Positions 1 to 24,506 of a stretch of 64,000 nt of DNA are shown one piece after another. Made by a program: the position numbers and the translations under genes. The stretch is from Mesotaenium endlicherianum (lineage: Eukaryota), in the NCBI GenBank assembly GCA_009602735.1, contig WELA01001056.1, forward strand, positions 1 to 64,000, given 5' to 3'. Each line of letters opens with the position of its first letter. Positions within the stretch are counted from its first letter, which is position 1. Under the pieces are notes generated by a model, which did no database searches, had not been told where the DNA came from, and saw only the letters and a list, made by a program, of their open reading frames with translations.

Positions 1-2983
1 AACGCTTACATTTGAGGTACTCAACACTGGTTTCTATGATCTCGTGCTAAGCAGGTCCTGGCTTAATAGACATCAAGTTGAAGTGTGTTGGAGCAGAGGT
101 ACTGTTAAAGTGAGAGGAGCCAGTGATGGGCAGAGTGACTTGGCACCCACCAGTGCTCTTCCTCTTGTCCTGTGTGGATGGCAAATGAAGGAAAAGAAGA
201 GGCTTCCAGAAGGATGCAAGTTGCTGAANACCAGTGCTCTTCCTCTTGTCCTGTGTGGATGGCAAATGAAGGAAAAGAAGAGGCTTCCAGAAGGATGCAA
301 GTTGCTGAATGCAATGGAGTTCGTCAAAAGCTGGAACCAGAAGGAAGACAGAATGTTCTTTCTGCTGCTAAGAGAGGTACCTCCTCAACCTGAAGAAGTG
401 GTTGAGAAAAAGGTACACCCTCCGGAACACCCTACTGCTGCAAACATTGTTGCTCAGTACACGGATGTGTTTAATATGCCTCCAGGACTACCCCCTAAGC
501 GGGAAGTAGATCATAGGATTGATTTATTACCTGGTAGCCAGCCACCCTGGCAACGCACGTATGGCTTGTCTTATTTGGAGAGTGAGGAGTTGAAAACACA
601 GATTGCAGAGCTGGAGGAAAATGGTTACATTTCTCCCAGTAAATCACCGTACGGCGCACCTATCCTATTTGTTAAGAAAAAGGATGGCAGTATGCGGATG
701 TGTGTGGATTATAGAGCCCTGAACAGAATTACAATAAAGAACAAGTATGCTTTACGCATAATCGAGGACTTGCTTGATACCCTGTCTGGCGCTAAGGTGT
801 TCAGTAAGATAGATCTCAAAAGTGGTTATCATCAAATTAGAATTGCTGAGGGGGATGAACACAAGACTGCCTTTCGCACACGTTGTGGACACTATGAGTT
901 CAACGTGATGCCATGTGGATTGACAAATGATCCTGCGACCTTCATGGGTGCTATGAATGACATTTTCAGGCCTTATTTGGATAAAGTTGTGCAAGTTTTC
1001 TTGGATGATATTTTAATTTTCTCTAAAGATGAGACTCAGCACGCTGAACACTTAAAGACAGTCATGAACAATCTGAGAAGAAATCAGTGATATGCTAAAA
1101 TGAGCAAGTGTGATTTCTTTAAGGAAAGTATTGAATTCTTAGGCCACGTTGTCAGTAAAGAGGGCATCAGTGTGGACCCTAAGAAAGTCCAGACCATAAG
1201 GGACTGGCCAGTACCACAGTCTGTCTCTGAAGTTAGATCCTTCCTCGGGTTGGCTAACTACTATAGGAGATTTATTGAGAATTATTCCACGAAGGCCAGT
1301 AAACTGACTGACCTTACTAAAAAAGACATAGGGTATGTGTGGGGGAAAGAGCAGCAGGCTGCGTTCCAGACCCTTAAAGATGATGCACTCTCTAGAAGAC
1401 CTGACTTGCAAGAAGGGAACTATCGTCAGCATGCTGTAGATAAAGTCCTGTGTGCACTCACTTCACCAAAGGTGAAAAAGTCCTTCCTTGAACAACTTAG
1501 GAAAGCCTACCTTTTTGACCCAACATTTGAGCCCAGCCCCACTACTGGTGTGTGTCGGGCTCCTGCACTCGGGTACCGGCTTAAAGCAGGGGTCTCGGTG
1601 ACTGAAACCACTTCAGGCAGGCTGAAGCTGGTCATTCCTAATAACTTGGAATTAAAGTCCTTTTTATTGGGTCAAGCACATGATAATTTACTGGGTGGGC
1701 ATTTGGGGCAAGCCAAAACTGTTGGCAAACTGGCAAAACATTATCATTGGGAGGGGTTGCCCCGAGAGGTCTTGAAATATGTGAAGTCCTGTGATTAGTG
1801 TCAAAGAAATAAGTCTAGGCACACACCACCGGGAGGTCTCTTGCAACCGCTGCCCATCCCAGCGGGACGCTGGGAAACTATATCCATGGACTGGGTGGTC
1901 ACACTGCCACGAACTGCTAATGGGCATGATTCAATACTGGTAGTCGTGGATAAACTGACAAAAATGGTCATTTTCATCCCCACAACTGTCAAAGTAATTG
2001 CAGTCGAAACAGCGAGACAGTTCTACTACCATGTAGTATGCCAACATGGGCTACCCTCTAATATCATCTCAGACCGAGACTTACAATTCACCTCTAAGTT
2101 CTGGAGAGCTTTAATGGGGTTAATGGGAGTCAAACAGCTGCTCAGCACAGCAAACCACCCTCAGAATGATGGGCAGACTGAAAGAACTAACCGAGTTCTG
2201 CAGGAGGTGCTGAGAGCATATATTAACCAAAAACAAGATAATTGGGATGACCTGTTGCCTCTAATTCAATTTGCGGTCAACAGTGCGGTGCACGCGTCAA
2301 CGGGCAAGACTCCTTTTGAACTCAGCCTGGGTAGAGCCCCTAAGCCTCCTTTAGATGTACTGAGGGAGTCATCAACTGACCCTGAAGGGATTAACAATCC
2401 GGTCTCCCTCCAGTTAACTCAGGAATTTGTTGACATACTGTCACCAGTCCAACAAAACCTGCACAAAGCCCACGAAAACCAACAAAAATACGCTAATCGA
2501 CACCGTCGGAAGCTGACATTATCGAAGGGCGATTTAGTCAAACTGCATTCTCAGCACCTGTACCTCCCTGGTGTGGTCAAGAAAAAGCTTGGCCCTGTCT
2601 GGGTCGGTCCATATTCGGTAGTGCATCGTGTCGATCAGAATGCTTACAAACTGAACATGTCAGCGGACTTTAAGGGTCACCCGGTCTTTAATGTCTCCTT
2701 CCTGGAACCGTACATCAAAGGTGACAAACTGTTCACAGGTCGGTTACCTGTCCAACCGGGACCGGTCCCCGCTGTCCGGGACGGCGATCTTGAGGAATAT
2801 GAGGTCGATGAGATTTTAGACGCTCGCTTGGTCCGTCGATCGTCTAAATATGTCATGAAGTACCTCATCCGATGGAAGGGTTACGATGCCTCTGGGGACA
2901 CTTGGGAGTTTAAAGACCAGCTGACCAATGCCAAAGGGGCGTTAATACGGTTCCACCTTCGGGCGGCTGAGGCACCGCCCTAA
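1..2983 (+). pseudogene. pol: Defective pol of A1 (protease C-terminus, RT, integrase, chromodomain; RNase H deleted)
   Basis: ORFs 44-1090, 1100-1798 and 1841-2983 share one frame, broken by stops at 1088-1090 and 1796-1798. RT has VFLDD; integrase has HHCC and GPY; the chromodomain reads YEVDEIL...YLIRWKGY...TWE. There is an in-frame 414-bp deletion at ~1380 relative to A2 8534-8947. Confidence 0.95.
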
Positions 2984-3330
2984 CTGTCCCTTCAGTAGAC
3001 ATGGGAAGGTGACAGGAGGTCCTGTCTCCATATAAGTTGGAGGGGAATGTGACAGTTAGTGACAGTTGTGACAGGCAGCCCACCTTTAAAATTAAGTCGG
3101 AGGGAGTGGTATTCTGTTTCGGGATCAGCCGGAAAATCTCTGATAACCATATTACACACTCAACCTGCGCTTACACTCACTTTCTCTCTAACTCAATTTT
3201 CCCTTATATTCACTCACACCAGGTATTTCACAATAGGATCTCTCTCGATCGCGTTCCTCTTCATCAAGGGCACTCAGTAACGGCAAAATATCATGACTTT
3301 ACTACTGCATTGTGTTTATGATTGAGCAGG

Positions 3331-4533
3331 ATGACTCAAAAGTCGGAACTCAAGAGGAAGAGAAGGGCGGAAGAGGCACATGCAGAATACTTGCAATTCC
3401 GTGGAGACTTTGAATCATCCTCCATCTCCGCTCTGGAATCACAACGACTCCAACAACAGCGGGAGGCACAGAAGAAGAAGGAGGAGGAGGAACAGGCCAG
3501 ACGGAGGCAGGAAGAACTGGACAGAAAAGCTGCAGAGGAGGCCAAGAAAGCAGAGGAGGAGAGGCAAGCTGAGGAGAAGCGGAAGCAGCAGGCTGAAGAA
3601 GAGCAGAGGAGAATCAGCAGCTACTGCTACACAGTACTGGGCAAGGGCTTCGATCTACTGGAGGAGGCCTTCAAGTATGCTCAGAGAAGTCGCAGTGAGT
3701 CACAGAAGGACATCCTCCAGAGGGAAGGGGAGACATCCGAAAACTTTGACAAGTATATAGAGGTCAGCACGGGGCTCCTCCTCTACCACGTTTACGCCAG
3801 GATGGTAGGATGTACGGTTAGAGAGGCCAAGGCAATGGCCCAGGTGAATGAAGCAGGGGCTGTATCTATTCCTGGTATCTGGGGGGAATAGGGTCATCAG
3901 GATGATTCCCATGGACGCGGACAGCTTTAAGGACTCTACACCCCATAACAGGTTCAAGGCCATGTATAATGAGGTGGAGAGAAGGAGCTGGGAATTCTTG
4001 ACCAGGGAAACCAGTCAGCTAGACTTTGCAGGGCACTGGTACCCTTGTACTCTTGAAAGGACAGACCCTGCCTTCTTCCAAAAGCCCACCAATTGGCGGT
4101 GGATGACCATCAACATGAGGGACCAGCAGAATGACAGGGCGAAGGATGAGGATTTCCTAAAGGGGAACATAGTATTGCCCCCTCACATTGCGGCTTGGGA
4201 CCCAAGATTGGATGGAGTCAGAGACTGCATGAGCCAAGAGATGCAGGGGGACAGAAGCAGGGCCCGAGAGTCATTCTCAAAAGGGAAGCACGCTTATGCC
4301 AAATGGGCAAGCAAGCAAGGGGAAAAGGACCTCTATGCGGTCCGGACTCAGCAGCCCCCACCAGCACCCAAAAGGGGAAGGTCAATAGGATATATTTTTT
4401 CTCGGGAAGAGCTGGAGCAGCCAACAGAAGAGACCCCAGAAGTCTCAAAGGAACCCGGGGACGGAGAGGAGGAGGAGTCAGAGGAGGAAGGCGAGGAGGA
4501 GGACATAAGCCCCGCCGTGATCCTGACGCCTGC
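3331..4533 (+). pseudogene. Extra ORF3 of A1 (unknown function), frameshifted and truncated
   Basis: ORFs 3322-3891 and 3848-4591 join at the G6 run 3881-3886 into a protein colinear with 10818-12494. Shared motifs: YNEVERRSWE, HWxPC, PTxWRWMT, LPPHIAxWDPRL, FSKGKHA. The LTR cuts it at 4534. Confidence 0.85.
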
Positions 4534-5252
4534 TGTAATGAATCAGTATATTAGTGGATATAATATTCATTTAAATCCAATAGTTAATTAAGTTCAGCCT
4601 GTTGTACTTTAGTTAATAATCAGTCTGCTGGACTTTACATAATTATCAGTTTAATGACTCGGCCGAAAGCAGCAGGCTGAAGTCAACTTAAGTCAGCTTG
4701 CTGACACATTCTTTGACAGCCAGCTGACTTCCGTGCTCGGTAGCAGCGAACTGCCTTGATATGCATCTAAGTACGACATGCTAGATGAATGGCCAGATGA
4801 CATCCCCATGATGGATGGCTATTCGGGATGATGGGAGATGGCGGTGGATTTGGTTAACCGAGGTCCTACCAACGTGGTTAACTCCCGGGTAGGCGGTGCC
4901 ATCGCACTGACCGTTGAACAGTAAACTCATTCCATGTACATATGCTAGGCATTGCTCTCGAGTTCGGCATTCGGAAACGAGGCCAACTCTCTTGTACAGC
5001 TTACTGAGAGAACTCTGAATCCAAGGCGAGAAGCCATTGATACGCACTGTCTTCTAACCTTGCTTATGTATGAGTTTACTGATTTGCATCATTGATGCTA
5101 GTTTACTCGCATTTGACTTACGAGTATTATTCCCTGCTAGTGTATTGTCCTTTGCCGTTTAACTAGTTAACGGAAATACCATAAAGATTACTTGCTGATA
5201 TAAAGATCTTTATTAATTGTTAATCGCCTATTTGGTAAGTCGATTCATTTCA
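4534..5252 (+). repeat. 5' LTR of A2 (719 bp)
   Basis: TGTAATGAATC...GATTCATTTCA (10/11 terminal inverted repeat). Direct repeat of 12608-13328 and inverted copy at 14745-15464. Confidence 0.96.
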
Positions 5253-5253
5253 G

Positions 5254-5265
5254 TGGTATCGGAGC
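5254..5265 (+). promoter_or_regulatory. Primer-binding site, initiator tRNA-Met type
   Basis: TGGTATCGGAGC lies 1 nt after the LTR and differs by one base from the canonical plant TGGTATCAGAGC. Confidence 0.9.
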
Positions 5266-5286
5266 AGTTATCACAGTCTTCTTTGT

Positions 5287-6765
5287 ATGGTAAGGACAAG
5301 GTCTCAAACTAGCAACTCCCGAGACATGGAGAACCAGGATAACGAGAATGTCGAAAACCAGGCGGAAAGCCATGTAGCGGGAAACCGTACCTATTCGGAA
5401 GCAGTAGCGGATACTGCAGCTAGGGAGGCTGCAGATGAGGCAGCTGCTATTGCCTCAGTCGCAGCTCAGCAAGCTGAGGAGGAGATAGCCAGACTAGAAG
5501 CTGAACAAGTAGCAAAGGCCGCTGAAGATATACAAAGGAGGGAAGGACAGCCAGCTGACGAGCGCACTGTTGAAGAACTTATGGCATCAAGGGCCAATGT
5601 TCTGAACCCACCTCCTGCCGTACAACTCAATGTACCCCTAGGTCAAATACGTGACCGGCTGAATGCGGCAGGAATTGCTGCTGCAGGAGCAAGAGGGATT
5701 GTTGAGGACACTACTCAGCGAGTAGATGCCAATGCTGCTGCTGCATTTGCTAATCTACCACCCCAAAATGTAGACTTGGGAGCATTGTTCGTTCAGATGC
5801 AGTCGCAAATGGCGACCATGTATCAGTCCCAGCAGGAGGACAAAAGAATCATAATGTCCCTACTCCGGGACAGAGACCAACTGGGGTCTCACACCACTAG
5901 TGGTGGTGGCCGAGGGCCTAGTAAGCCCAAGCCGAAACCTCCCCAGGACTATGATCCTGAGGGAAACAGAAAATATTACCTGATCAAGTTTCTCGCGGAT
6001 GTTGAGCAGTGGCTGGAGAACTACCCAGAACTGCAAGATTACGAGAAGGTCAGGCACACCGGTGCGCTACTGAAAGGCAGTGCCGCAGACTGGTGGCTTT
6101 ACTGGAAGGAAGAGCGTAAGGCTCGGCAACTCGGTGACCCTACGTGGGTAGAGTTTGTCGAGAAGTTGCATGAGAAGTTTGATGTCATCAACCAGCAGGA
6201 GAAAGCTATCTATGCGATGATCTCCCTGACACTGAAGCAGACCACTTCAGTTGCTGAGTTTGCTCAAAAGTTCCAAGAGAACATGATGAAGCAGCCTGAT
6301 TTGCCAGAACGGTATAGGATAGCATACTTCAGGTATGGCTTGAAATCCGAGGTCTCTGGTCATTTTGCTGAGAAAAAGTATGAGAAACTGGCTGACTTGA
6401 TCCAGGATGCTGACGCCTGGGATCAGCAGCAGTTCAATCACAAGCGCCAGAGTAACGCTTTGGTGTCTAAGATTGTCAAAAAGCCCCACGGTTCCTACAA
6501 TGCAGTTGAAGGAGACCAGGCTGAGGATAATCAGGGTGATGAATATGAGTATGAGTACAATGCTATTCAGTCTAGAGGTAGAGGTGGTCCCTCTCGAGGT
6601 GGCTATGGAAGGGGTGGTGGTAGGACTAAGCCGAGACCAGCCTCAGCAAAATCGACTTGCTACCATTGTGAGCAGAAAGGCCACTACAGAGTACAGTGTC
6701 CGGTCAGGCACCTGCCTAAGGTCGAGAGAAATGACCAGCCTTTAAAAGACAGCAACAGTCAGTAA
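5287..6765 (+). CDS. gag: Gag (492 aa) with C-terminal CCHC zinc knuckle
   Basis: Starts MVRTRSQ just after the PBS. Has a capsid-like region ([10 protein letters not shown]...[14 protein letters not shown]...FRYGLK), an RGG tract, and [14 protein letters not shown]. Confidence 0.95.
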
Positions 6766-9700
6766 TCCAGTCTACTGACTGTGAGGATGCTAGAGATAGT
6801 GAGTCGTCACTAGCTGCCCTCGTAGCAGGTATTATGGGTCCTGCTGAACTGGATTCACTATGCATGCCTGACAAACAGATAAAGGAGACCATCAGTAATA
6901 TAGACGTCCAGAGAGTGCACACTCTGGATGCTCTTGTTCCACCTGATGTCCAACATTTCTTTGCTACGTCAGGAGAACAATGCGAAAGTCAGGAAAAGAC
7001 AGTCCCCCCTATCCTACTGCATTGCATGATTGCAGGTAGGAAGGTGAGGGCATTTGTTGACGGAGGGGCGTCACATACCTTTATCCACAAGGACTTAGTT
7101 AAGCGGCTAAGGCTGCCTACTGTCACCCAAGGGAATAGAAAAATATTCCTTGGAGATGCCTCAAGTATCCCGGGAGGAGTTATAACCAAGCCTATTGAGG
7201 TCCAGTTAGGTTCTGGCATTGCAGTTCTAACTGAAACGCTTACATTTGAGGTACTCAACACTGGCTTTTATGATCTCGTGCTAGGCAGGTCCTGGCTTAA
7301 TAGACATCAAGCTGAAGTGTGTTGGAGCAGAGGTACAGTTAAAGTGAGAGGAGCCAGTGATGGGCAGACTGACTTGGCACCCACCAGTGCTCTTCCTCTT
7401 GTCCTGTGTGGATGGCAAATGAAGGAAAAGAAGAGGCTTCCAGAAGGATGCAAGTTGCTGAATGCAATGGAGTTCGTCAAAAGCTGGAACCAGAAGGAAG
7501 ACAGAATGTTCTGTCTGCTGCTAAGAGAGGTACCTCCTCAACCTGAAGAAGTGGTTGAGAAAAAGGTAAGCCCTCCGGAGCACCCTACTGCTGCAAAAAT
7601 TGTTGCTCAGTACACTGATGTGTTTAACATGCCTCCAGGACTACCCCCTAAAAGGGAAGTAGATCATAGGATTGATCTATTACCTGGTAGCCAGCCACCC
7701 TGGCAACGCACTTATGGCTTGTCTTATTTGGAGAGCGAGGAGTTGAAAACACAGATTGCAGAGCTGGAGGAAAATGGTTACATTTCTCCCAGTAAATCAC
7801 CGTACGGCGCACCTATCCTATTTGTTAAGAAAAAGGATGGCAGTATGCGGATGTGTGTGGATTACAGAGCCCTGAACAGAATTACAGTAAAGAACAAGTA
7901 TGCTTTACCCAGAATCGAGGACTTGCTTGATACCCTGTCTGGCGCTAAGGTGTTCAGTAAGATAGATCTCAAGAGTGGTTATCATCAAATCAGAATTGCT
8001 GAGGGGGATGAACACAAGACTGCTTTCCGCACACGTTATGGACACTATGAGTTCAACGTGATGCCATTTGGACTGACTAATGCTCCTGCTACCTTTATGG
8101 GTGCTATGAATGACATTTTCAGACCTTATTTGGATAAGTTTGTGCAAGTTTTCCTGGATGATATTTTAATTTTCTCTAAAGATGAAGCTCAGCACACTGA
8201 ACACTTAAAGAAAGTGCTGGACACTCTGCGGAAAAATCACTTGTATGCTAAAATGAGCAAGTGTGATTTCTTTAAGGAAAGTATTGAATTCTTAGGCCAC
8301 GTTGTCAGTAAAGAGGGCATCAGTGTGGATCCTAAGAAAGTCCAGACCATAAGGGACTGGCCAGTACCACAGTCTGTCTCTGAAGTTAGATCCTTCCTCG
8401 GGTTGGCTAACTACTATAGGAGATTTATTGAGAATTATTCCACAAAGGCCAGTAAACTGACTGACCTTACTAAGAAAGACATCGGGTATGTGTGGGGGGA
8501 AGAGCAGCAGGCTGCCTTCCAGACCCTTAAAGATGCCCTTTGTTCTGCCCCAGTGCTAGCCGTGTATGACCCCAGCAAACCGGTGCAGGTGGTTACTGAT
8601 GCCTCTGATTTTGCCATGGGTGCTATTTTGTTGCAGCCTGCTGACAAAACCACAAAGGATGGTAAGGTACGGCAGGAGTGGCATCCTGTGTTGTATGAGT
8701 CTATGAAATTTAATCCAGCGGAGATTAATTACTCAGTGCATGATAAAGAGCTGCTAGCTATCATTCATGTACTCAAACAGTGGAGAGCATACTTACATGG
8801 TAAAGCTTTTAAGGTGATTACAGATCATCTAGCTCTGACCCACTTTCAGAAGAAGTCCAAGCTGTCGAGGAGGGAGAACCGCTGGAGCCAGATGCTGGAG
8901 CAGTTCCAAGTCCAGATCGACTACAAACCAGGGAAGTTGAATCCTGCTGATGCACTCTCTAGAAGACCTGACTTGCAAGAAAGGAACTTTAGTCAGCATG
9001 CTGTAGATAAAGTCCTGTGTGCACTCACTTCACTAAAGGTGAAAAAGTCCTTCCTTGAACAACTTAGGAAAGCCTACCTTTCTGACCCAACATTTGAGCC
9101 CAGCCCCACTACTGGTGTGTGTCGTGCTACTGCACTCGGGTATAAGCTCAAGGGAGGGGTCTGGGTGACTGAAACCACTTCAGGCAGGCTGAAGCTGGTC
9201 ATTCCTAATAACTTGGAAATAAGGTCTCTCTTACTGAGTCAAGCTCATGACAGTCTCCTGGGTGGACATTTGGGGCAGGCCAAAACTGTTGGCAAACTGG
9301 CAAAACATTATCATTGGGAGGGGTTACCCCGGGAGGTCTTGAAATATGTCAAGTCCTGTGACCAGTGTCAGAGAAATAAGTCTCGGCACACACCACCCGG
9401 AGGTCTCTTGCAACCGCTACCCATCCCAGCGGGACGCTGGGAAACTATATCCATGGACTGGGTGGTCTCACTACCAAGAACTGCCAACGGGCATGATTCA
9501 ATACTGGTAGTCGTGGATAAACTGACAAAAATGGTCATTTTTATCCCCACAACTGTCAAAGTGACTGCACTCGAAACAGCGAGACAGTTTTACAACCATG
9601 TAGTATGCCAACATGGGCTCCCTTCTAATATCATCTCAGACAGAGACTCAAAATTCACCTCTAAGTTCTGGAGAGCTTTAATGGGGTTAATGGGAGTCAA

Positions 9701-10550
9701 ACAGCTGCTCAGCACAGCAAACCACCCTCAGACTGATGGGCAGACTGAAAGAACTAACCGAGTTCTGCAGGAGGTGCTGAGAGCATATATTAACCAAAAA
9801 CAAGATAATTGGGATGACCTGTTGCCTCAAATTCAGTTTGCGGTCAACAGTGCGGTGCACGCGTCAACGGGCAAAACTCCTTTTGAACTCAGCCTGGGTA
9901 GAGTCCCTAAGTCTCCTCTAGATGTGCTAGGGGAATCTTTAACTCACCCTGAAGGGATTGACAACCCGGTCTCCCTCCAGTTAACTCAGGAGTTTGCTGA
10001 CACCCTGTCAGAAGTCCAACGAAACTTGCACACGGCCCAAGAAAACCAACAAAAATACGCTAATCAACACCGTCGGGAACTGACATTTTCCAAGGGGGAT
10101 TTAGTCAAACTGCATTCTCAGCACCTGTACCTCCCTGGTGTGGTCAAGAAAAAGCTTGGCCCTGTCTGGGTCGGTCCATATTCGGTGGTCCGTCGTGTCG
10201 GTCAGAATGCTTACAAACTGAACATGTCAGCTGAATACAAGGGGCACCCGGTCTTTAATGTCTCCTTCCTGGAACCGTACATCAAAGGTGATACACTGTT
10301 CACAGGTCGGTTCCCTGTCCAACCGGGACCGGTCCCCGCTGTCCGGGACGGCGACCCTGAGGAATATGAGGTCGATGAGATTTTAGACGCTCGCTCGGTC
10401 CGTCGATCGTCTAAATATGTCATGAAATACCTCATTCGATGGAAGGGTTACGATGCCTCTGGGGACACTTGGGAGTTTAAGGACCACTTGACCAATGCCA
10501 AAGGGGCGTTGACACGGTTCCACCTTCGGGCCGCTGGAGTCCCTCCATAA
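6735..10550 (+). CDS. pol: Pol polyprotein: aspartic protease, RT, RNase H, integrase, chromodomain (intact frame)
   Basis: 1238-aa ORF from the first ATG at 6834. Motifs: [46 protein letters not shown]...CDQC, ISMDW/ISDRD/GQTER, GPY, and a C-terminal chromodomain. Confidence 0.97.
6741..6782 (+). other. Putative -1 programmed ribosomal frameshift signal (gag to pol)
   Basis: U_UUA_AAA heptamer in the gag frame (6741-6747), a 7-nt spacer, then a perfect 10-bp stem ACAGTCAGTA (6755-6764) / TACTGACTGT (6773-6782). The pol frame is -1 and open from 6735. Confidence 0.8.
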
Positions 10551-10572
10551 CTGTCATTTCAGTTGACACGGG

Positions 10573-10615
10573 AAGGTGACAGGCGGTCCTGTCTCCATTT
10601 AAGTTGGAGGGGAAA
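10573..10615 (+). promoter_or_regulatory. Internal hairpin plus PPT-like tract after the pol stop (also at ~3006-3047 in A1)
   Basis: GACAGG-N4-CCTGTC hairpin followed by TTAAGTTGGAGGG, a 13-mer identical to the terminal PPT region at 12593-12605. Confidence 0.75.
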
Positions 10616-10817
10616 ATATATGACAGTTAGTGAGCGAGAGCGATAAAAACACACTCATACGTTTATGTGTAGCGCATCGCAACTACGTCAACTTTTAGCA
10701 ATCATCCTGTAAGGTAAACAGCAGCGAAGCCACTATACTAAATACTAACATACTTCCTGCAATCCCTATGACAAAGGTCCATATCCTACTAACTTGTGCC
10801 CTGGTTACATGTGCAGG

Positions 10818-12494
10818 ATGGCGCCCACCACACAAAAGGAGGACAGAAAGCGCAAGGCAGAAGAAGCCAGGAGGACAATGGAGCAATACCAGAAGGAGCT
10901 GGCGGCGACGTCCCTCACCAGGAGAGAACAAGAAAGGGTCCGCAAACAACAAGAGGCGGCAGAAGAGGCACAGAGGAAGAAGGATCAGGAAGCGGAAAAC
11001 CTCAGGAAGGCTGAGGAGGAGAGACAGAAGAAACAGCAAGAAGAAGCGGCAGCGGCAGAAGAGGAGAAAAGAAAAAAGATTGAAGCGGACAGACAGAAGA
11101 GCTTGGCCACTTACAGGTATACTGTGGTGGGTGGCCAAAACTTCGATAACCTGAAGGAAGCATTGCTGGCAGCCCAGGAGATCAACAGGCTGGAACAGAC
11201 AACACTGCTACAGAAGGAAGGAGCTACAGCACTGGACAGGTACATCGAGACACACACCGGCGTGGTCCTTTACGAAGATTATGCTAAGATGGTGGGCTAT
11301 ACAGCAGAGCAGGCCCGGTATCTCGCAGATGATTCAGAGGACAAGCCGGTCCCCATACCGGGAATAGTGGGAGATCAGAGTCTCATCCGGATAGTGAGCA
11401 TGCGGCCCGATAGCTTTAAGGATACGGTATTCTACCTCACACTCCTGCCAGCTTATAATGAAGTCGAGAGAAGGAGCTGGGAGTACTTGGCCAGGGAAGC
11501 AGGACAGCAGATGTTCTCTCCCCACTGGTTCCCGTGTAAACTGAGGAAGGCTGAGCACGGACCCCAGTACTACCAGCAGCCAACAGACTGGAGGTGGATG
11601 ACCGTCACAAATAAGAAGCAGGAGTGTGACCGAGCCCAACCGGATGACTTCCACTATGGCCTAGACGGCTATCTCATCCTACCACCTCACATTGCCCCTT
11701 GGGACCCCAGGCTGAATGGATGCCTGAGCAATATGAATGCAGAGACCAAGGAACATAGGAGGAGGGGAAGAGACTACTTCTCTAAGGGAAAGCATGCCTT
11801 TGTCAAATGGGCAAAGAATGCAGGCCGGATAGATATCAGTAGGCTGAAGGCCAAGCAACCTCCAGCGCGCCCTAAGAAAGGGAGGTCGGTAGACTACTCC
11901 ATGTCTACTAGGGAGCAGGACGACTTAGTGGACGAGACCCCTACTCTCTCCGAGGAGGAGGATGAGGAGGATGAGGAAGAAGAACAAGGCAGAGGAGAAG
12001 CATCAGCAGCAGGTACTCAGGATACCCAGGGACAGGCAGTGGCACTTCCTAAAGAACCACGATCAGGTGTGTGGAATGTGATCCCCGTTATGGCGACAAC
12101 TGGACCCCGCGCTCGCTCCCCCAGCCCACCTGCCCAAGCAGGGGAAGAAGCTGATCTGACTGTACTGGGCAGCAGACACAGGCAGAAATCCCCAGAGGAC
12201 AGGGGTGCCAGAAGAGGGACACGCGGGTGGGCCAGAGGTATGCCAGCCTCCCCCTCCGCTCAGGGGCATGTACCTCTAGCCAATGTATTTCAGCATCCTA
12301 CTGGAATGCCTGTCTATGTGGGAATCAACACCCAAATAGTTGAAGAGCAGGCCACCATCCTCCGTTCTCCCCGAGGGCCAACTTTAGAGCAAACAGGGTT
12401 CTTTAGAAGGCCAGCTGACAGACCTAGAGGGCTGTCCAGATCTAGGTCCAGATCTCCGTCCCCTGATCCTGAAGCCCCAGGAACCACCCCTTAA
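10818..12494 (+). CDS. Extra ORF3 of A2 (~558 aa; coiled coil, Trp-rich globular core, acidic and RS-rich tail; function unknown)
   Basis: Long open frame between pol and the PPT, with a diverged homologue at the same position in A1. No hydrophobic transmembrane stretch. The start is placed at CAG|GATG, which both copies share. Confidence 0.88.
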   Translation: MAPTTQKEDRKRKAEEARRTMEQYQKELAATSLTRREQERVRKQQEAAEEAQRKKDQEAENLRKAEEERQKKQQEEAAAAEEEKRKKIEADRQKSLATYRYTVVGGQNFDNLKEALLAAQEINRLEQTTLLQKEGATALDRYIETHTGVVLYEDYAKMVGYTAEQARYLADDSEDKPVPIPGIVGDQSLIRIVSMRPDSFKDTVFYLTLLPAYNEVERRSWEYLAREAGQQMFSPHWFPCKLRKAEHGPQYYQQPTDWRWMTVTNKKQECDRAQPDDFHYGLDGYLILPPHIAPWDPRLNGCLSNMNAETKEHRRRGRDYFSKGKHAFVKWAKNAGRIDISRLKAKQPPARPKKGRSVDYSMSTREQDDLVDETPTLSEEEDEEDEEEEQGRGEASAAGTQDTQGQAVALPKEPRSGVWNVIPVMATTGPRARSPSPPAQAGEEADLTVLGSRHRQKSPEDRGARRGTRGWARGMPASPSAQGHVPLANVFQHPTGMPVYVGINTQIVEEQATILRSPRGPTLEQTGFFRRPADRPRGLSRSRSRSPSPDPEAPGTTP

Positions 12495-12592
12495 GGTGAC
12501 AGGCTGAAAAGATAGTCAGTAAGGGAGGCTGGTCAGGGTCAGTTTCTTTATTTAAAGCTTTTGCAGTTTAATGTTGTCGAGGCGACAACAAG

Positions 12593-12607
12593 TTAAGTTG
12601 GAGGGAT
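12593..12607 (+). promoter_or_regulatory. Polypurine tract of A2
   Basis: TTAAGTTGGAGGGAT immediately precedes the 3' LTR TGT, and is itself preceded by the hairpin GTTGTCG-AGG-CGACAAC. Confidence 0.88.
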
Positions 12608-13328
12608 TGTAATGAATCAGTATATTAGTAGATATAATATTCATTTAAATATAATAGTTAATTAAGTTCAGCCTGCTGAACTTTAAGTTAATAGTCAGTC
12701 TGCTGGACTTTACATAATTATCAGTTTAATGACTCATCCGGAAGCAACAGGCGAAGTCCATATAAGTCAGCTTGCTGACCCATTCTTTGACAGCCAGCTG
12801 ACTTCCGTACTCGGTAGCAGCGAACTGCCTTGACTTACACCTAAGTACGATATGCTAGATGAATGGCCAGATGACATCCCTATGATGGATGGCTATTCGG
12901 GATGATGGGAGATGGCGGTGGATTTGGTTAACCGAGGTCCTACCAACGTGGTTAACTCCCGGGTAGGCGGTGCCATCGCACTGACCGTTGAACAGTAAAC
13001 TCATTCCATGTACATATGCTAGGCATTGCTCTCGAGTTCGGCATTCGGAAACGAGGCCAACTCTCTTGTACAGCTTACTGAGAGAGATCTGAATCCAAGG
13101 CGAGAAGCCATTGATACGCACTGTCTTCTAACCTTGCTTATGTATGAGTTTACTGATTTGCATTATTGATGCTAGTTTACTCTCATTTGACTGACGAGTA
13201 TTATTCACTGCTAGTGCGTTGTCCTTTTGCCGTTTAAACAGTTAACGGAAAGTACCATAAAGATTACTTGCTGATATAAAGATCTTTATTAATTGTTAAT
13301 CGCCTATTTGGTAAGTCGATTCATTTCA
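12608..13328 (+). repeat. 3' LTR of A2 (721 bp)
   Basis: Direct repeat of 4534-5252 with about 35 differences counted by eye; same TGT...TCA termini. Confidence 0.96.
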
Positions 13329-14710
13329 ACACTGCTCTCTGAAGTGACCTGGCTGCTGGCAATGGAAGCAAATCGACTTTGCTGAGGTTGGTCTCGGCTT
13401 AGTCCTACCACCACCTCTTCCATAGCCGCCTCGAGGGAAACCACCTCTACCTCTAGATTGTATGGCATTATACTCATACTCATATCCATCACCCTGATCA
13501 TCCTCGGCCTAGTCTCCCTCAATTGCATTGTAGGAACCGTGGGCTTTTTGACAATCTTAGACACCAAAGCATTACTCTGGCGCTTGTGATTGAACTGCTG
13601 TTGATCCCAGGCATCAGCATCCTGGATCAAGTCAGCCAGTTTCTCATACTTCTTCTCAGCGAAATGACCAGAGACTTTGGATTTCAAGCCATACCTGAAT
13701 TATGTTATCCAACACCGTTCTGGCAAGTCTGGCCGCTTCATCATGTTCTCCTGGAACTTTTCAGCAAACTCAGCAACTGAAGTGGTCTGCTTCAGTGTCA
13801 GGGAGATCATCGCATAAATAGCTTTCTCCTGCTGGTTGATGACATCAAACTTCTCATGCAACTTCTCGACAAGCTCTACCCACGTAGGGTCACCGAGTTG
13901 CCGAGCCTTACGCTCTCCTTTCCAGTAAAGCCACCAGTCTGCGGCACTGCCTTTCAGTAGCGCACCGGTGTGCCTGACCTTCTCGTAATCTTGCAGTTCT
14001 GGGTAATTCTCCAGCCACTGCTCAACATCCGCGAGAAAATTGATCAGGTAATATTTTCTGTTTTCCTTAGGATCATACTCCTGGGGAGGTTTCGGCTTGG
14101 GCTTACTAGGCCCTCGGCCACCACCACTAGTGGTTTGAGACCCCAGTTGGTCTCTGTCCTCCTGTTGGGACTAATTCATGGTCGCCATTTGCGACTGCAT
14201 TTGAACGAACAATGCTCCTAAGTCTACACTCTGGGGTGGTAGTCTAGCAAATGCAACAGCAGCATTGGCATCGACTCGCTGAGTAGAGTCCTCAACAGTC
14301 CCTCTCGCTCCTGCAGCAGCAATTCCTGCCGCATTCAGCCGGTCACGTATTTGACCTAGGGGTACATTGAGTTGTACAGCAGGAGGTGGGTTCAGAACGT
14401 TGGCCCTTGATGCCATAACTTCTTCAACAGTGCGCTCGTCAGCTGGCCGTCTTTCCCTCCTTTCTGTATCTTCAGCGGCCTTTGCTAATTATTCAGCTTC
14501 TAATCTGGCTCTCTCCTCGTCAGCTTGCTGTGCTGCGACTGCGGCAATAGCAGCTGCCTCATCTGCAGCCTCTCTAGCTGAAGTATCTACCACTGCTTCA
14601 GAATAGGTACGGGTTCCCGCTACATGGCTTTCTGCGTGGTTTTCGACATTCTTGTTATCCTGGTTCTCCATGTGTCGGGAGTTGCTAGTTTGAGACCTTG
14701 TCCTTACCAT
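13329..14710 (-). pseudogene. gag: Degenerate gag of A3
   Basis: Fragments [12 protein letters not shown]..., [12 protein letters not shown]... and [16 protein letters not shown]... with stops, frameshifts and a 30-bp deletion. Confidence 0.93.
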
Positions 14711-14731
14711 ACAAAGAAGACTGTGATAACC

Positions 14732-14743
14732 GCTCCGATACCA
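14732..14743 (-). promoter_or_regulatory. PBS of A3 (tRNA-iMet type)
   Basis: GCTCCGATACCA on + equals TGGTATCGGAGC on -, 1 nt from the LTR end. Confidence 0.9.
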
Positions 14744-14744
14744 C

Positions 14745-15464
14745 TGAAATGAATCGACTTACCAAATAGGCGATTCACAATTAATAAAGATCTTCATATC
14801 AGCAAGTAATCTTTATGGTAATTTCCGTTAATTGGTTAAACGGCAAAAGGACAACACACTAGCAGTGAACAACACTCGTAAATCAAATGCGAGTAAACTA
14901 GCATCAATAATGCAATCAGTAGACTCATACATAAGCAAGGTTAGAAGACAGTGCGTATCAATGGCTTCTCGCCTTGGATTCAGATCTCTCTCAGTAAGCT
15001 GTACAAGAGAGTTGGCCTCGTTTTCCAAATGCGCAACTCGAGAGTAATACCTAGCATATGTACATGGAATGAGTTTACTGTTCAACAGTTAGTGCAATGG
15101 CACCGCCTACCCGGGAGTTAACCAAGTTGGTAGGACCTCGGTTAACCAAATCCACCGCCATCTCCCATCATCCCGAATCGCCATCCATCCTAAGGATGTC
15201 ATCTGGCCATTCATCTAGCACACCACACTTAGATGCATATCTAGGCAGTTCGCTGACCGACTACGGAAGTTAGCTGGCTGTCAAAGAATGTGTCAGCAAG
15301 CTGACCTAAGTTGACTTCAACCTGCTGCTTTCCGGCTGAGTCATTAAACTGATGATTTAATAAAGTCCAGCAGACTCAATATTACCTAAAGTTCAGCAGG
15401 CTGAACTTATTTAACTATATTATTCAAATGAATATTATATCAAGCAATATATTGATTCATTACA
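14745..15464 (-). repeat. 5' LTR of A3 (720 bp)
   Basis: Inverted copy of the A2 LTRs: TGAAATGAATC...GATTCATTACA on +. Confidence 0.95.
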
Positions 15465-17918
15465 GCTGAGGCGTCCCTGCCCTTCTGCTGAAAGCTTTTA
15501 TTTTTTGGCCCTGTGGCTGGGTTTTGGGAAGGCAGTCAGGACATTCCCACCGTCCTGCCATAATTTCTTCTTCATTAATGCAGAAGGTGTGCCAATGGGC
15601 ACCACACTTATCGCTGGTTACCATTGCTTCTTGATCATCCAGCACTTTGCAGCTGGCACAAGGCGTGGCTGGCACCACTTCCTCGGGCTTAGTCTTAATT
15701 GCAGGATCGATATTTGGCAAATGGCACAGCAAACAGTTTTGCACGTGATCTCTCATGGTCTTACCATCAGAACCTTCCAGTTCCAACACACCATTGTCGA
15801 ACGCATGTTTCACGCGTAAGATTATTGCACTTGAATTGGTGTCAATGGTGGTCTTAGTTTGGCGCATGCGGTAGACGAAGTCTCCTTCCTGGATCTGCGT
15901 CATTTGCAGGCGGTAGCTCCCATCTCGCGTCCTGGCGTAACGCTGTGTGTCTCTTTTCTGTGCAATTTTCAGATTGTCCAGGGCAACAGGCATCATGTGC
16001 TCAAATAACACCTTGCGGCGCAACATGACCTTTAACAGTTCATCAGGGTTGTCCAGATCTTTCACCTGCTCAATCTCCAGCTTGATGCTGCTGGGCACAA
16101 CTGGAGTTCTTCTAAACAAAATTTGATAAAGTAAGGAATTCGCCAAAGCTGCTTGCTTGCTAAATTTGCGAGATCGCAGCTCCACCGGTAGCCTAGGCCC
16201 ATGATTGGCAGAGGTTGCAGGTGTGGGTGTTGCTGCGTAAAACCAGCCTTGACGCGATCGCAGCTTGTACAGGCCTTGATCACATCCTCACACTGCTGCT
16301 TCATACCCCTCCACCAGTAAGACAGCTCCAGAAGACTGTATGTCTTCTTGACACCATAGTGTCCAGTAGTCTCATGCATTTCCTGCACCAAAGCTCGTCT
16401 TTTGGTGGGTTCTGGCACTAACTTTTCCTGACCAGTTTCTTCAATCTTGAAGAGGTTATTGCGTTTCTAGCAAAATCTTTCAGCTCGATGGCCTACCTGG
16501 TCCTTTTCTTTTGCCGATAATCCTTCTATATGGACCCCTGTCTTCAACCAATGCATAGTGGCTTGATCTTTCCAAATCTTTGGACTGAACAAAGGTAGGG
16601 GCTCAACTTCTCCTGATGCTACCAATTTAGCCATTTCGGCAAGGCAGGCGGCCAATTCTGTGGGGCTGCTCGGATCTTCGTCTTCTCGAGCTCCTGTTCT
16701 GTTGTCTGCAGATGGGTCCGGGTTCCTGCTGAGTCCATCAGCGTCGTTGTTGAGTATACCTGCTCGGTGTATCAACGTCATCTGGTACTTCTGGGGCTTG
16801 AGAGCCCAACGAGCCAGTCTACCAGTGAGGTCTCCATTCTTCATCAGCCAGAGTAATGGCGAATGATCTGTGATCAGCGTGAAGGGTCTTCTCCATAGAT
16901 ACTCTCTAAAATGTGCAACAGCCCAAACCACTGCCAGTAGCTCTCCTTTGTAGGACGAGTAGTTGCTCTCCGCTCGGTTGTTAGAGCTCGAGGCATAGGC
17001 AATGACGTACTCCTCTCTAGGACTTTCGTCCTGAGTGAGTACTGCGCCAATTCCCACACGACTCCAATCGGTGTGTAGATTGAACGGCTTGGAGAAGTCA
17101 GGTGTTCGCAAGACTGGGGCTGTTACCAGCCGCTCCTTGAGCTCGTTCATGGCCTTCCCCTGGGCTTCCGTCCACACAAAAGATACGTCCTTTTTCAGGA
17201 GTCAAGGGTTTAGCAATTTTGCTATAATCCTTCACAAATTTACGATAGTATCCGCTTAGCCCTAACAGAGCTTTCAACTTAGACACATTCGCTGGTGCAG
17301 GTATCTTGTAAATGGCTTCAGTCTTTACAGCCAGAGGGGACATAGCATTACCGTCCATTGCCAAAGTTCCCTTTGGGCCCAGAAAGCGGTCTTACCTCGA
17401 TCTTCTGTCTTCACAGGGATCTGGTTGAACCCTTGGTGTAGATCGATGATGCTGAACACCTTCCCGGTGGTAGCAATCGCAAAAATCCGCTCTGGTGTAG
17501 GCATCACATAGCTGTCTGGCTTCGTGAGAAGATTCAGTCGTCTGTAGTCTCCACACATACGAGTGGCTGTATAGTTGCCATCCTCGTCCTTCTTGGCAAC
17601 TACAACCGTGGGAGCTCCATGTATTGAGGTTGATTTCTCGATCATGCTGAGCTTGTGCAGCTCCTGGCAAGTTTTCTCCACACAGTCCCATTCGGTCTAA
17701 CTGAGCTTATGCGGCCCAAGTCTGACTGAATTATCAGCAGTTAGTGTGATCTCACACACACTGGCAGTGGTTCTACCAATCTTCTCTTTGGTAAAAGCAA
17801 ACACCTTGCGGTGCTTCTTCAGCAGCCTTTCTACTTGTGCTCTCTGTTGGGCTGAGACCATATTTCCAATGGTGAAGACCTCAGTTGCTGGCTGCTTTTC
17901 CCCAACACAGGCATCCAG

Positions 17919-17927
17919 TAGTTGCTA
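17919..17927 (-). other. Putative stop-codon readthrough signal UAG-CAA-CUA (B1)
   Basis: ...KPKE TAG CAA CTA continues in frame into QLLDACVGEKQPATEVFTIGNMVSAQQRAQVERLL and the RT. The same nonamer occurs at the same position in B2. Confidence 0.75.
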
Positions 17928-20099
17928 CTCTTTGGGTTTAGGTGGGGGCTTTCCGCCCTCATCCTGGCCTTCAGGCTTTTCTGCCTGATTGTTTGGCGGT
18001 GGAGTGGCAGGCTTTGCAGCTTGCTCCTCCGCTATCTCAGGCTTGGCGGCTTGCTTCTTAGGCCTCTTACCTTTCCCGATAGATCGTCGCCTTTCTGGTT
18101 GCGTGGTGTAGGTCAAGCGCCTCCGGATGGGCTACCTCAAGAATCTTTCTTCATCGGCCGCAGTCCAGGTGGTCCCTGTTCCTCCTTCTTCACGTGGTGG
18201 GGGTGGGTTTGGCAAAGGCCACCCTGCTGGATCTGCTCTGGGGTCGATTATCCAACCCCATTCGCGCTCAATGGTAGCTATGCGCGCAACGGTTGTGCCA
18301 AACTCCTCCCTGGCTGGTGGCGTAACCGTCCATGTTTGTGTCATAGTCTGCGATCTTTGGGCCGCAGCTAGTTGTGCGTATACAGCATTTTCTGCTGTTA
18401 AGCGGCTTATGGTGCTTCTTAGCTCTACCAATTCCCTTTTCGACACTGCAAGTGTCCTAGGAGCTGAACTGTCCTTCTCCCATGTTCCAGTGGATGAGAG
18501 ATGCACCATGGGAATGTGAATTCCCAAAGTCATGTCTTTGCGAATTAAGCCATCCTCTCCCTCTCTCTGCAAAATTTCTAGGATAGGTTGCGGAGGAGGA
18601 GCCGTGGTTCCTTTCGGAAACCCTTCTCTCTGAGCTGTTCCCCTGTACTTGAAGTAACGCATCAGCATCCGCCTAAAAGGTGCATTCCCTTTCCGGGCAA
18701 CCTTTCTTGGTCTGCTTGCACAACCGTGAGGATTTCCTTGTGTTGGTTCCACCTTAGCTGTGCAGGCAGCCACTTCCTGCGGTTGTTGTAGCTTATGTGG
18801 GGTAGCTTCTGGTGTTGGAAAACTAACGGTTGGAGTGCTGGATGTAGGCGACCTTAGATCGTTGTAAAGGTCGGCCGGGCTGGGTCCTTCCATCATCAAT
18901 TGGTCGTTCACCCAGTCATCCGTTCTGAGTTCTTGTAGCTCCAATAGTTCCGATTCTGGGGTAGGAAAACGTGGAATTGCTTCCTGAATCTCCTCTTCAT
19001 TGGTGACTGACGGCAGGTCAAACCTTGGAAGGTCTGGCATCTCTGCCTCATCTTCAACTGATTTCTCCGCTCCGGGTGGTGGCGTTTTCCCTTCATTATA
19101 TGTGTTGAGCTTTGCCAAGTTGACGATGGCTGATTGCAGAGCGCTTGCCGCCTTAGCCACTTCCCGTTCCTTGTGTTGTCCGGCGTCTGCGTCCAGCAGC
19201 TGCTCCATGATTTGCCTTGCAATGGATTCAGCTGTTTGACTGGCTGAACCCTGCCGTTGCCCCTTAGCTTGCGGCTCTGGGCTCATCAAGGCAGGTGTTG
19301 TAGACAATTTCTTGTCCAACTCCTCCTGGCGTTCTTCGAATATTACTTCGAGACATATGGTCTTTGCAGACCCTCCAGAATATCCTGAGTTCTGGCTACT
19401 CTCTTCGGCCCATTCACCAAGATTGCACTGGCGTTCTTGCCTTGGTACTTGGTTTAGGCAGTATCCAGTGTTTTCAGCTGTAGGCACAGGAGCCTTCTTC
19501 TCTGATTCTTTTGACATGTCTTGTAACGACGCTCGCTCTGGTGAAGACAATAGACACTCTTGGTTGGCTTCCCAGCTACTTGAGCTTTCCTGCCAATAGT
19601 CTCCGTGCTTAGCTGCTCTTGGGCTAAGGGGGGTATCATACCCTGACCTGGCCTCTTCTGGGGTCTCTTCACGTCTTGATGTCGTTGTTCCGGGAGGTGA
19701 GCTTCCAAAAATCTGGCTGTGTGTGGCGTTTCTCACAGATAATGGGGTGCCATGCGTATTGTCTTGCACTCCTGGTAGCGGTGCTGCTTGCTCAGGTGCC
19801 TGATCCCTCATGGGTGTATCCTCTCTTTCCAGAGGTGCTTGTAATTCATTGGTCCGGTTATCAATCCGGTTTAATAGCTCCTGACATCTCATCAGTTCTA
19901 CCATCCTATCTCCCTTGTATGCTCTGTCTACAGCGGCTTCCGCTGCGTCTCTTTGCACCCAGTATTCTTCTTGTTGCTGATGTGCCATTCTGATAGCCCT
20001 CTGGTCAGATGTTGGCACAACATTGATCCCAATTGTCACTGGTCATGGTCTCGGCATAGGCTTGTCAGTGAAGGTCAACTGTTGCCATGTCATGATTGT

Positions 20100-21060
20100 T
20101 TCCACCAACCAAGTCATAGAGTGCTGCCCGATCATGTTGCCGAAAATCTTTGCAGCCTCATCAAATCCTACAGCACCAGCTTTATGCCGAGCTATGTTTA
20201 CGGGTATTCCAAGGCATTTGCCCTTTTCCACCGCGGTGGGCTCTCTCCACACAGCGTCTCTTTTATAAATGTCTTTGACCATTCCTGGTCCACCTCCTTT
20301 GAAGGCTCGGGTTCCTGGATATGCTGTAAAGGTAGGCAGTACCACTCTTGGCTGACCTGGTTCATTGATGACACACTGTGGATAGGAATCCCTCCAGGTC
20401 ACTGGTCTGGTATGCACCGCCAGTGCCTTTTCCCCTGTCAATGCTGTTGGTGATCGCCGTGTAATGTCTTCCATTTCTCTCAGAACCTCGATAGACATGC
20501 CGTTGGTCCAAAGTATCCTGGCCCTATGAGAGAATCCTCCGTCTTGGCGTCGTTGATTAGCACATGATGGCCCAAAGTGGAGTAAAAAATCAGCCATGGT
20601 TCTCCCGGCTTCATCTGCTTGCGGTCCATTCCTGGATGTACGTTCTCAATCACAAACACAGGTGAGTGATAGTACTGACGTTCCCGCAGTATGCTAACCC
20701 ATCCATCCCCAGTGTTGTGCTCGTGGATCACTGAATCCCATCCTGTTTCCAGCTTGAGAATATGGTTGACAAGGGAATCCAGCAAAGATCCAATCAATCC
20801 TGTAGCCATACAGGTATTCAAGCTTCACGTTCATAATGTTGCCTCCAGCAATGCGCTCGACATTGCTATATGCAGGCGCCAACCTTTGAAAATGATGCAT
20901 TTGCCGCTCTGATTCATGACCTCTTGGAATGCTCGAAAAGCGTGGTCATTGTTGTCCACATACAGGACTTTGGCCACCTGTATTCCTCGCTGGATCAATG
21001 CTATGGTCCCAGAGCCAAGTCCGGCGAATAATTCCAACACCACCACTCCCCTTTTGCGGA
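20100..21060 (-). pseudogene. C5 cytosine DNA methyltransferase domain of B1 (frameshifted)
   Basis: Motif I VLELFAGLG is in the same frame as the protease C-terminus (ORF 20831-21550). Also IV AGFPCQPYSQAG, VI FVIENV, VIII SHRARILW, IX REPTAVEKGKCLGIP and X IFGNMI. Confidence 0.92.
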
Positions 21061-22799
21061 AAGGATCTTCCATCCTGACAATGCCTTGCGGCAACGGCTC
21101 CACTCCAGGCATCAGATTTGCAGAGGAGGTAACTTGGTAGGGTACTGGCAGCAGCTCTTGCGGGCCGTGGTCCCTATTACTTACAGTTTCCAGCTGCTTC
21201 ATGATCCGGGATTGCCATACCAAGGGTGTCGGCATGTTGATGCTTGTATAGCCTTCCTCTTCTTTCTTCATGAGGTCATCGCTGGCTTCTGGGTACCTGT
21301 CGTTAACGTAGCAGTCTAGCAGTCCGTAGTCTGCTTCTCCTATGCAAACCATTTTCACAAGAATTTCTCCTGCCGGCTGTCTATCTGTTGACTGGTAAGT
21401 CACTCTCTGTTTCCGCAGATCAATGATCATACCCAAGGGAATCAGTGCTTCTGTTCCCAAGAGAACATCATAGTTCTCAGCTTCCGTCACTGTGCACTCC
21501 ATGAATAGTGACGCCTCTTCAGGTTTCCCTAAAGTTAATGTGATTTTCACAGGCTTGCGGGTAATCCCACAAGACTTTGAGACTTATCCTGAGGCAGTTC
21601 TCAATTGAAAAGAACTCTCTTTCGAGTCCCTTGTCGTCAAACCTAGAACTTTCACAGCTAGTTTTCCCAAAATGACTGGCTGTGCGCCTGTATCCAACAG
21701 ATGGTTGGGAGCTGCCCAGTTGTTGAAGATCAATGCACCATCCTTATTTTGCACTCTCACGGTGCTAAAATTGGTGGGCAATGAGGCGCTATTTGCACCT
21801 TCCTCAGCTATATCCAGCTGATGTCCGGCCTCTTCAACCGTGAATGGGTAGGTGATGTGCAAATCAGCGAGAGAAAGCAAAGGAGCATGCTGGATCCGGT
21901 GTTCCACCAGAGCCTTCAGCTTCTCCAGTGAAAAACTGAATGTCTTGCACAACCCGGGCCTGGTTTGTCGTGGCTGCGAGATCTTGTTTTCATCCAGAGT
22001 GATCCGGAAAGTCTGAGGAAGCTTCCTAGCATTCCTTGGCACCAGACGGTTGTGATCTGCTTGCTCGGCAGCCGTTGCATCCACAGCCTTTTCAGGCAGC
22101 CGCTTCTCGCCTTTGCAGAAGGTCTTTTCTGCAATGTCTGCATCATAATAGACATTGGGCGCATTTAGTTTTGCAAACTGTGCTTTCAACTCAGCAATTT
22201 CTGCAATCATAGCTTCATACTTCTGGTTACCCTTGCGGTTACCAGAGCCACCCTTTTCTTTCTTTTTCTCTTTGTCTGCCTCTTTCGTGGCAGCATTTGC
22301 CTAGGGCGGCTTTAGATTTGGATTCTTAGACCAGCACTTCGAAAGTGAGACCATTTCCGCTGGTTCGTCTGCTAAAACATTTTGCAGACAGCTTGAACTT
22401 AGGATTTTCATCCCGATCATCACCGGCCATTTCGAACGGTGAACAGGACTCACTGACTCTTCCCCACACGTCTTGCTCTCTGCCCAAATTAGGTGTAAAG
22501 GCTCGTGTGTTATCTGGGTTCTCACCGCTTGCGGAGTTATAATGAGATTCGTCTCTCGACGTTTGCTCACTCCACCGGTTGTCAGTATGCTCAGACGTCT
22601 CAGTTTCTTGTTGACTCTGGCTAGAATTAGAACCTTCTGCAGGCTCCACAGAGTGGTAGAGTCTTCCAATCCTCAACCGCATATCCAGTTGAATTTCTCC
22701 GAGTCCCCTTCCAGGTTGAACACAAGCAGCCTTCACAGGCCTCAATCCCCAACTGACTTGGGAATTCTTGTTCACCTGAACCAATCAACCGAAGTTCTC

Positions 22800-24459: not shown

Positions 24460-24470
24460 CCCCTCCCTTT
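24460..24470 (-). promoter_or_regulatory. Polypurine tract of B2
   Basis: AAAGGGAGGGG on the minus strand, ~35 nt after the polyprotein stop and followed directly by TGT. Confidence 0.8.
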
Positions 24471-24506
24471 CAGCTGAGGCGTCCCTGCCTTTCCTGCTGA
24501 AAGCTA

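Follow-up and report, generated by a model that had tools for sequence, protein, structure and literature searches.

An extra gene in two deeply diverged versions behind nearly identical pol genes in a chromovirus family of a likely streptophyte alga

Both extra ORFs at the 3' end of retrotransposons and recombination between elements are already known. In the accessible parts of a survey of plant elements, sense 3' extra ORFs (eORF-3'F) are reported at 74% for SIRE and 18% for Tekay and none is listed for Chlamyvir and Tcn1 (clades of algae and non-seed plants), Galadriel, Reina or CRM, and the question whether the extra ORFs of plant retrotransposons have any function is left open (PMC6317226). 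The available portions of further accounts describe spliced 3' ORFs in Bagy2 and the nuclear GENE23 of Grande (PMC7264820), an exchange of segments among variants of the grass CR/CRM chromoviruses with proliferation of the recombinants (PMC4079200), and modular, non-Env ORF3s of GDSL, DEDDy and coiled-coil type, said to be spliced, on the Ty3/Gypsy elements of bdelloid rotifers (PMC5408684).

The DNA analysed here (the window, 64,000 nucleotides in its whole length) holds at positions 1-15464 three copies, A1, A2 and A3, of a chromodomain Ty3/Gypsy family that we call family A. Its domain order, chromodomain, LTRs of the form TG...CA, primer-binding site and polypurine tract are those of a Ty3/Gypsy chromovirus, and the nearest integrases among 120 matches listed are 30-44% identical. 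A2 lies on the forward strand in the order LTR-gag-pol-tract-ORF3-tract-LTR, and its gag, pol and ORF3 frames are all open. Its 5' LTR (TG...CA, 4534-5252) is 95% identical to the 3' LTR and is followed by a primer-binding site read from the sequence (5254-5265), which we take to be of the initiator-Met tRNA type, by gag with a Ty3 capsid and zinc knuckle (5326-6765), and by pol (6735-10550) with protease, RT, RNase H and integrase in this order, SH3, and at the C-terminus of the integrase a chromodomain (PF00385, E 2e-8) with Y/W/Y cage residues. Behind pol stand an inner polypurine tract (10601) within an inverted repeat (10540-10557 and 10620-10637), making up the left edge of the cassette at 10540-10637, a 270-base spacer, ORF3 (10818-12494, 558 aa), the terminal polypurine tract that forms the right edge (12595-12607) and the 3' LTR (12608-13328). 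A -1 frameshift is predicted in the overlap of gag and pol (6741-6790), where a slippery-type TTTAAAA at 6741 precedes a 10-bp hairpin (z -2.2).

Copy A1, on the same strand, begins with a partial and decayed pol (2-2983) that has stops at 1088 and 1796 and an RNase H short by about 410 bases, and that ends in SH3 and chromodomain. Its inner polypurine tract (3034; a second tract-like match lies at 3094) sits within a 9-bp inverted repeat (2980-2988 and 3051-3059; whole element 2980-3062), and its ORF3 (3331-4533) is read in two frames, with a break near 3.89 kb, until it is cut at 4533 by the 5' LTR of A2, ahead of which there is no polypurine tract. A3 is an inverted third copy on the minus strand (13329-15464), consisting of an LTR (15464-14745) and a gag cut at 13329. 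The two LTRs of A2 differ by 4-5% and no target-site duplication was found around this copy, the flanks CCTGC and ACACT being different. Because A2 is flanked on the left by the ORF3 of A1 and on the right by the cut gag of A3, the locus has been rearranged, and the missing duplication concerns the A2 copy and not the family. In a DNA sequencing run (X1), seven contigs pass position 4533 into non-LTR sequence and other contigs differ at the frame break, which assigns both defects of the A1 ORF3 to this copy.

Several observations concern the surroundings. LTRs of family A lie within other elements, namely in the A1 ORF3 and against the A3 gag, with A3 at the integrase end of a second Gypsy family; run X1 has further LTR joins at 6124 and 7084, and such placement would fit targeting to heterochromatin by the chromodomain. 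One contig of this run connects the gag end with the pol start (6697-6828) via a stretch resembling a polypurine tract, and an exact 80-base tandem duplication at 149-309 around a single N at 229 is a likely assembly seam. The second Gypsy family occupies 15460-35000 on the minus strand in two nested or tandem copies that are 73-87% alike; in its pol, protease and RT flank a C-5 cytosine methyltransferase domain (PF00145, E 1.5e-17), after which some 900 residues have no Pfam match. It resembles KnitGypsy-Dnmt3, a fusion described, in the available part of the source, from the charophyte Klebsormidium (PMC5890265). Host genes include a C2H2 zinc-finger gene of STOP1/STOP2 type, whose long exons are Q/G-rich (37600-43100), and a signal peptide peptidase exon (59240-59389). 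The window is eukaryotic, and these genes together with the methyltransferase fusion point to a streptophyte alga as the likely host.

With its 558 sense-oriented codons between pol and the 3' LTR, the A2 ORF3 is well above the 250-codon minimum of the eORF-3'F class, and it shares with the members of that class, as described in the accessible parts of the survey, its position, its unknown function and its strong divergence between elements, Tekay being the precedent among chromoviruses (PMC6317226). The difference is that here two homologous and saturated types stand on pol genes 93-96% identical; homology of ORF3 to the extra ORFs of that survey was judged solely through Pfam and general protein searches. 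Position, sense orientation and predicted spliced expression are also features of the Env-like genes of Bagy2, Athila and the errantiviruses, as far as these are covered in the text available (PMC7264820), but ORF3 has neither signal peptide nor membrane segment and carries basic patches of nuclear type. Exchange in grass CR/CRM elements is described for LTR, UTR and polyprotein segments (PMC4079200), whereas here it concerns an accessory gene with two ancient types, and the rotifer ORF3s in the portion consulted are family-specific members of recognisable enzyme families, none of which the algal ORF3 matches (PMC5408684).

The comparison of A1 and A2 gave two very different pictures on the two sides of the inner tract. 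DNA identity is 95.6% between 230-1382 and 7383-8535 and 92.5% between 1381-3062 and 8948-10633, and beyond 3062 and 10633 the only significant DNA match is a 66% patch in the ORF3 core; the collapse after more than 90% identity is thus where the original prediction had placed it. Divergence in pol does not increase near the junction in 11 blocks, a point against the reading favoured below. The ORF3 proteins are nonetheless clear homologues (tblastn, 38.6% over aa 12-209 and 45.7% over aa 206-402 of protein P0001, E 7e-72), with 41-49% identity in all six segments along their length, close to the roughly 40% estimated earlier by eye, and with the five motifs named at that time all present in the alignments. 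In pol, pS ranges between 0.12 and 0.16, replacement difference between 0.02 and 0.04 and dN/dS between 0.18 and 0.25. For ORF3 we obtained pS of 0.71-0.74, pN of 0.31-0.37 and dN/dS of about 0.2 or less, values that compare only two sequences, one of them the decayed A1 copy; with a lower bound of about 0.62 for pS, dS comes to about 1.3 or more, no less than seven times the pol value. Codons are shared at 72 of 164 identical residues in ORF3 against 67 expected (z 0.83), and at 712 of 795 in pol against 292 expected. The synonymous sites of ORF3 are fully saturated. Since silent sites have diverged further than replacement sites, rapid evolution of the protein cannot account for the split, and positive selection as its cause was discarded on the same ground. 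ORF3 has been under long-term purifying selection as a protein, as had been proposed, and because pol and ORF3 are of different ages at least one recombination is required.

Both types are common in the sequencing data. Relative to gag-pol, the summed contig depth in run X1 is 0.34 for the A1-type ORF3, 0.55 for the A2-type and 1.96 for the LTR; these depths count contigs at 90% likeness and give rough ratios, not copy numbers. The two types together reach 0.89 of gag-pol depth on this rough scale, which places ORF3 in most copies of the family and leaves about 0.11 unaccounted. The abundance of both types in a single DNA run shows a family-wide dimorphism rather than a single odd copy, in agreement with the discrete ORF3 types predicted, and the ratios fit one pool of gag-pol and LTR with two ORF3 types. 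Twelve contigs branch off the A2 spacer at 10647 into other sequence, which hints at a further type. Among 84 contigs that reach the beginning of the LTR from outside, the majority show the tract behind a different upstream sequence, though at low agreement. At least half of the words of the A2 stretch were found in 20 of 24 runs listed (seven studies and five organism labels, some of which may be the source sample).

Taking these results into account, we lean slightly towards a reading in which a conserved extra gene, existing in two ancient and abundant versions and moved by recombination, encodes a nuclear helper translated from a spliced message. Recombination has likely moved the ORF3 block between lineages behind nearly identical gag-pol and LTR. 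Template switching by RT between co-packaged RNAs would very probably be the route, with crossover only in the shared pol and LTR, so that whatever lies between the two polypurine tracts would be transferred as a unit. Whether this exchange occurred repeatedly has about even odds. The original view of a module swapped between lineages therefore stands as regards the mismatch in age, which needs one recombination or more, but not as regards repeated swapping, as one old event yields the same two-copy picture. The main alternative, to which we assign somewhat less than an even chance, is a one-off capture, by a single old recombination or from a horizontally acquired sister element, after which the subfamilies were separate and no selection kept both. 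With two copies, one event and many look alike, the pol genes of A1 and A2 differ by 5-7%, and such events are documented for grass CR elements in the part of the literature available (PMC4079200). At four informative sites among 19 listed pol sites (there are 434 further sites) the frequency of the A1 letter in X1 is 0.28, 0.64, 0.55 and 0.32; the two sites at 0.28-0.32 are near the A1-type ORF3 share of 0.34, as a single capture would have it, but the other two, at 0.55-0.64, are not, and the contigs leaving the A2 spacer at 10647 also speak against it.

Examination of the A2 protein identified a basic patch at aa 10-13, a charged helix at 8-96, a conserved core at 97-345, an acidic run at 369-390, a PKKGR patch and a P/R/S-rich tail. 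The core of about 250 residues with W/H/P-rich blocks, the N-terminal basic patch and the PK(K/R)GR motif are common to both types, while the tail of A1 is missing beyond the cut at 4533, so that the RS-rich tail is observed in A2 only and cannot be counted as an addition of A2, as the original prediction had it. The E/K/Q/R segment had been described as a coiled coil. A charged segment is indeed present in both types, but with 8-9% LIVMF and 23 E-K/R pairs at i+4 against about 11.7 in shuffles (none of 2000 reaching 23) it reads as a charged single helix and not as a classical coiled coil; we take it to be a charged single alpha-helix. No hydrophobic segment was found in the A2 protein, the highest 19-residue Kyte-Doolittle mean being 0.93, and the signal peptide and transmembrane anchor that define Env are both missing from ORF3, which bears out the earlier statement that it is not Env-like.

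Searches for relatives were uniformly empty. Residues 95-365 and the two-type alignment gave no homologue in a set of 5.8 billion proteins (searched at lengths 306-977 and 106-350, respectively), the two-type profile gave none at E 0.001 among 1.84 billion representatives, and there was no match in viral and metagenome contigs. No homologue was found in Pfam (none above cut-off), PHROGs or PDB sequences, and thus, as predicted, ORF3 matches no well-characterised domain in these collections or in the profile searches. In the ESM Atlas the best scores were 0.79 and 0.83, under the level of 0.9 taken as a lead, and catalase-fragment matches were rejected; an HMG-box identity was also rejected, as the matches (UBF1, E 0.31; HMGB1, E 3.5) were partial and driven by composition. 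AlphaFold2 models were poor (pLDDT 33 and 40) for want of an alignment, and the second of these low-pLDDT models had no Foldseek match at E 0.001 in PDB or BFVD. The ORF3 profiles matched none of 78 related chromovirus-like metagenome loci, and an ORF3 domain fused to pol was found in none of 120 pol proteins listed. In the 24 related loci with at least 2 kb downstream, 16 sense ORFs were scanned, of which 13 were gag or pol, two had a zinc knuckle only, and one was neither. This last, a sense ORF of 728 codons (L046:5388-7571), lies 1.3 kb downstream of an integrase of chromovirus-like type; it matches neither gag nor pol, is unrelated to ORF3, and could represent a divergent gag or a further extra ORF. 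Since the host's own element is absent among the 120 integrase matches listed (best 44%), the empty ORF3 searches partly reflect sampling.

The spacers ahead of the two ORF3s are unrelated, their score being equalled in 375 of 1000 shuffles, except that both starts read GCAG|GATG. GCAGG precedes two of the 290 ATGs on the plus strand of 1-15464, exactly these two, and a donor-like site lies 103-107 bases upstream of each start. The predicted 5'-UTR introns are 3223-3329 in A1, with the donor CAG|GT at 3223 and the acceptor GCAG|G ahead of the ATG at 3331, and 10714-10816 in A2, with the donor AAG|GT, a branch-like CTAAC at 10789 and again the acceptor GCAG|G ahead of the ATG; further donor-like GGTAAG sites are at 5234 and 5289. 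From these signals we infer expression from a spliced message: ORF3 would probably be translated from an RNA using the AG just before its ATG, with the donor about 105 bases upstream or in the LTR or leader. Three poly(A) runs from one study, of each of which 6-12% was read, gave 885 reads on a 9.65-kb stretch, 32 of them at 99% identity or more; depth on the A2-type ORF3 stretch 10678-12287 was zero in all three, and no splice joint was listed among them. These runs may come from another strain and a silent state, and none of the 24 runs listed is an RNA run holding the A2 stretch. RNA reads at 4469-4501 were rejected as expression: they match over 33 bases of acidic codons and hang loose at either end. 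Poly(A) reads of diverged copies cover 4560-5525 (LTR) and 9390-10677 (integrase end, in opposite orientation by first mate) and break off at the fixed points 5252, 5355 and 10152; they are likely host transcripts containing fragments of family A.

As to what the protein does, the motifs make a nuclear regulatory role the most economical suggestion for ORF3. There is about an even chance that nuclear import is mediated by the basic patches and that inside the nucleus the core, carried by the charged helix as a spacer and bordered by the acidic and RS-rich tails, would regulate transcription, chromatin or RNA export of the element in trans. The anti-silencing or counter-defence function originally proposed is one sub-case of such a role and is unsupported: the domain searches offer no evidence for it. 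In its specific form ORF3 would resemble VANC, the accessory protein with a helical segment encoded by Mutator-like elements, acting as a sequence-specific factor, and an arms race against methylation by the host would maintain its types. VANC, as presented in the sections available, belongs to DNA transposons and is related to MAIN, and ORF3 has no sequence match to it (PMC13547354). This proposal is consistent with the acidic and basic tracts and with a divergence that is old and evenly spread, and the depletion of CpG in the element (0.35-0.6 of expectation), along with the cytosine methyltransferase domain of the neighbouring Gypsy family, makes methylation pressure likely real; but no VANC/MAIN-type domain passes the Pfam cut-off in ORF3, there is no sign of positive selection (saturation would hide such a signal), no type-specific repeated target motif was noticed in the shared LTR, and the three poly(A) runs show no expression. 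We consider a VANC-like factor unlikely.

A regulator of RNA export or splicing comparable to Rev, binding the stem at the inner tract and releasing unspliced genomic RNA, is quite unlikely in our judgement. A role of this kind has been proposed for plant extra ORFs in the part of the literature available (PMC7264820), and the conserved acceptor before the ATG, the Arg/Ser-rich tail and the inverted repeat conserved at the cassette edge agree with it, but the stem has modest folding support (z -1.6 and -0.9) and is common to both types, and no RNA-binding domain was found in ORF3. Slimmer still is the prospect that at least two ancient allelic classes of ORF3 are under balancing selection, each countering silencing differently while gag-pol and LTR recombine freely; if true, this would be the LTR-retrotransposon counterpart of VANC with an allele-like polymorphism.

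The edges of the cassette bear on a further alternative, namely that the inner tract and the TG behind it are a fossil, marking where an older, long LTR once began, and that ORF3 was formerly a gene borne on that LTR or a separate nested element. The polypurine tract motif occurs at four places in the 64 kb, all at cassette edges. In A1 two bases separate the inner tract from a TGTG, which recalls the TGTA behind the real tract; however, the TG is further away in A2, and TGACAGTTA, the 3' arm of the inverted repeat around the inner tract, pairs in both copies with the region of the pol stop codon, which the 5' arm spans 62 bases away. The homology of A1 and A2 stops at this 3' arm, and the end of a conserved cis element accounts for the boundary no less well than a nested LTR beginning at 3048 would. 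The LTR depth is also twice that of pol, as expected if the present LTR is common to all copies. With the A1 type abundant as well, the nested element beginning at TGT 3048, held out by the original prediction as a possible refutation, is weakened, and we regard a fossil LTR as very improbable. Clusters of GTGACAG/TGACAG adjoin each polypurine tract (3009-3075 in A1, with four in 65 bases; 10576-10627; 12496) and presumably resemble a TALE-homeodomain site. That the join of pol and ORF3 in A1 is an assembly artefact is scarcely credible, for although the missing target-site duplication of A2 and its LTRs 4-5% apart indicate rearrangement or misassembly somewhere in the locus, both types are abundant, together at 0.89 of gag-pol depth, and the two spacers share a homologous starting point and the acceptor-ATG at their end.

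A search of mostly openly available literature found no published report of the ORF3 protein, of a deep two-type split of ORF3 in an algal chromovirus, or of an accessory gene with two saturated types on a shared pol. The family adds, from what is likely a streptophyte alga, a chromovirus with an extra ORF; for the algal clades the reference survey, in its accessible parts, lists none (PMC6317226). Silent sites at saturation, a protein identity of 41-49% and a common acceptor-ATG show an extra ORF kept by selection as a protein over the long term, and its two types are in effect a swap experiment done by nature on a single gag-pol background.
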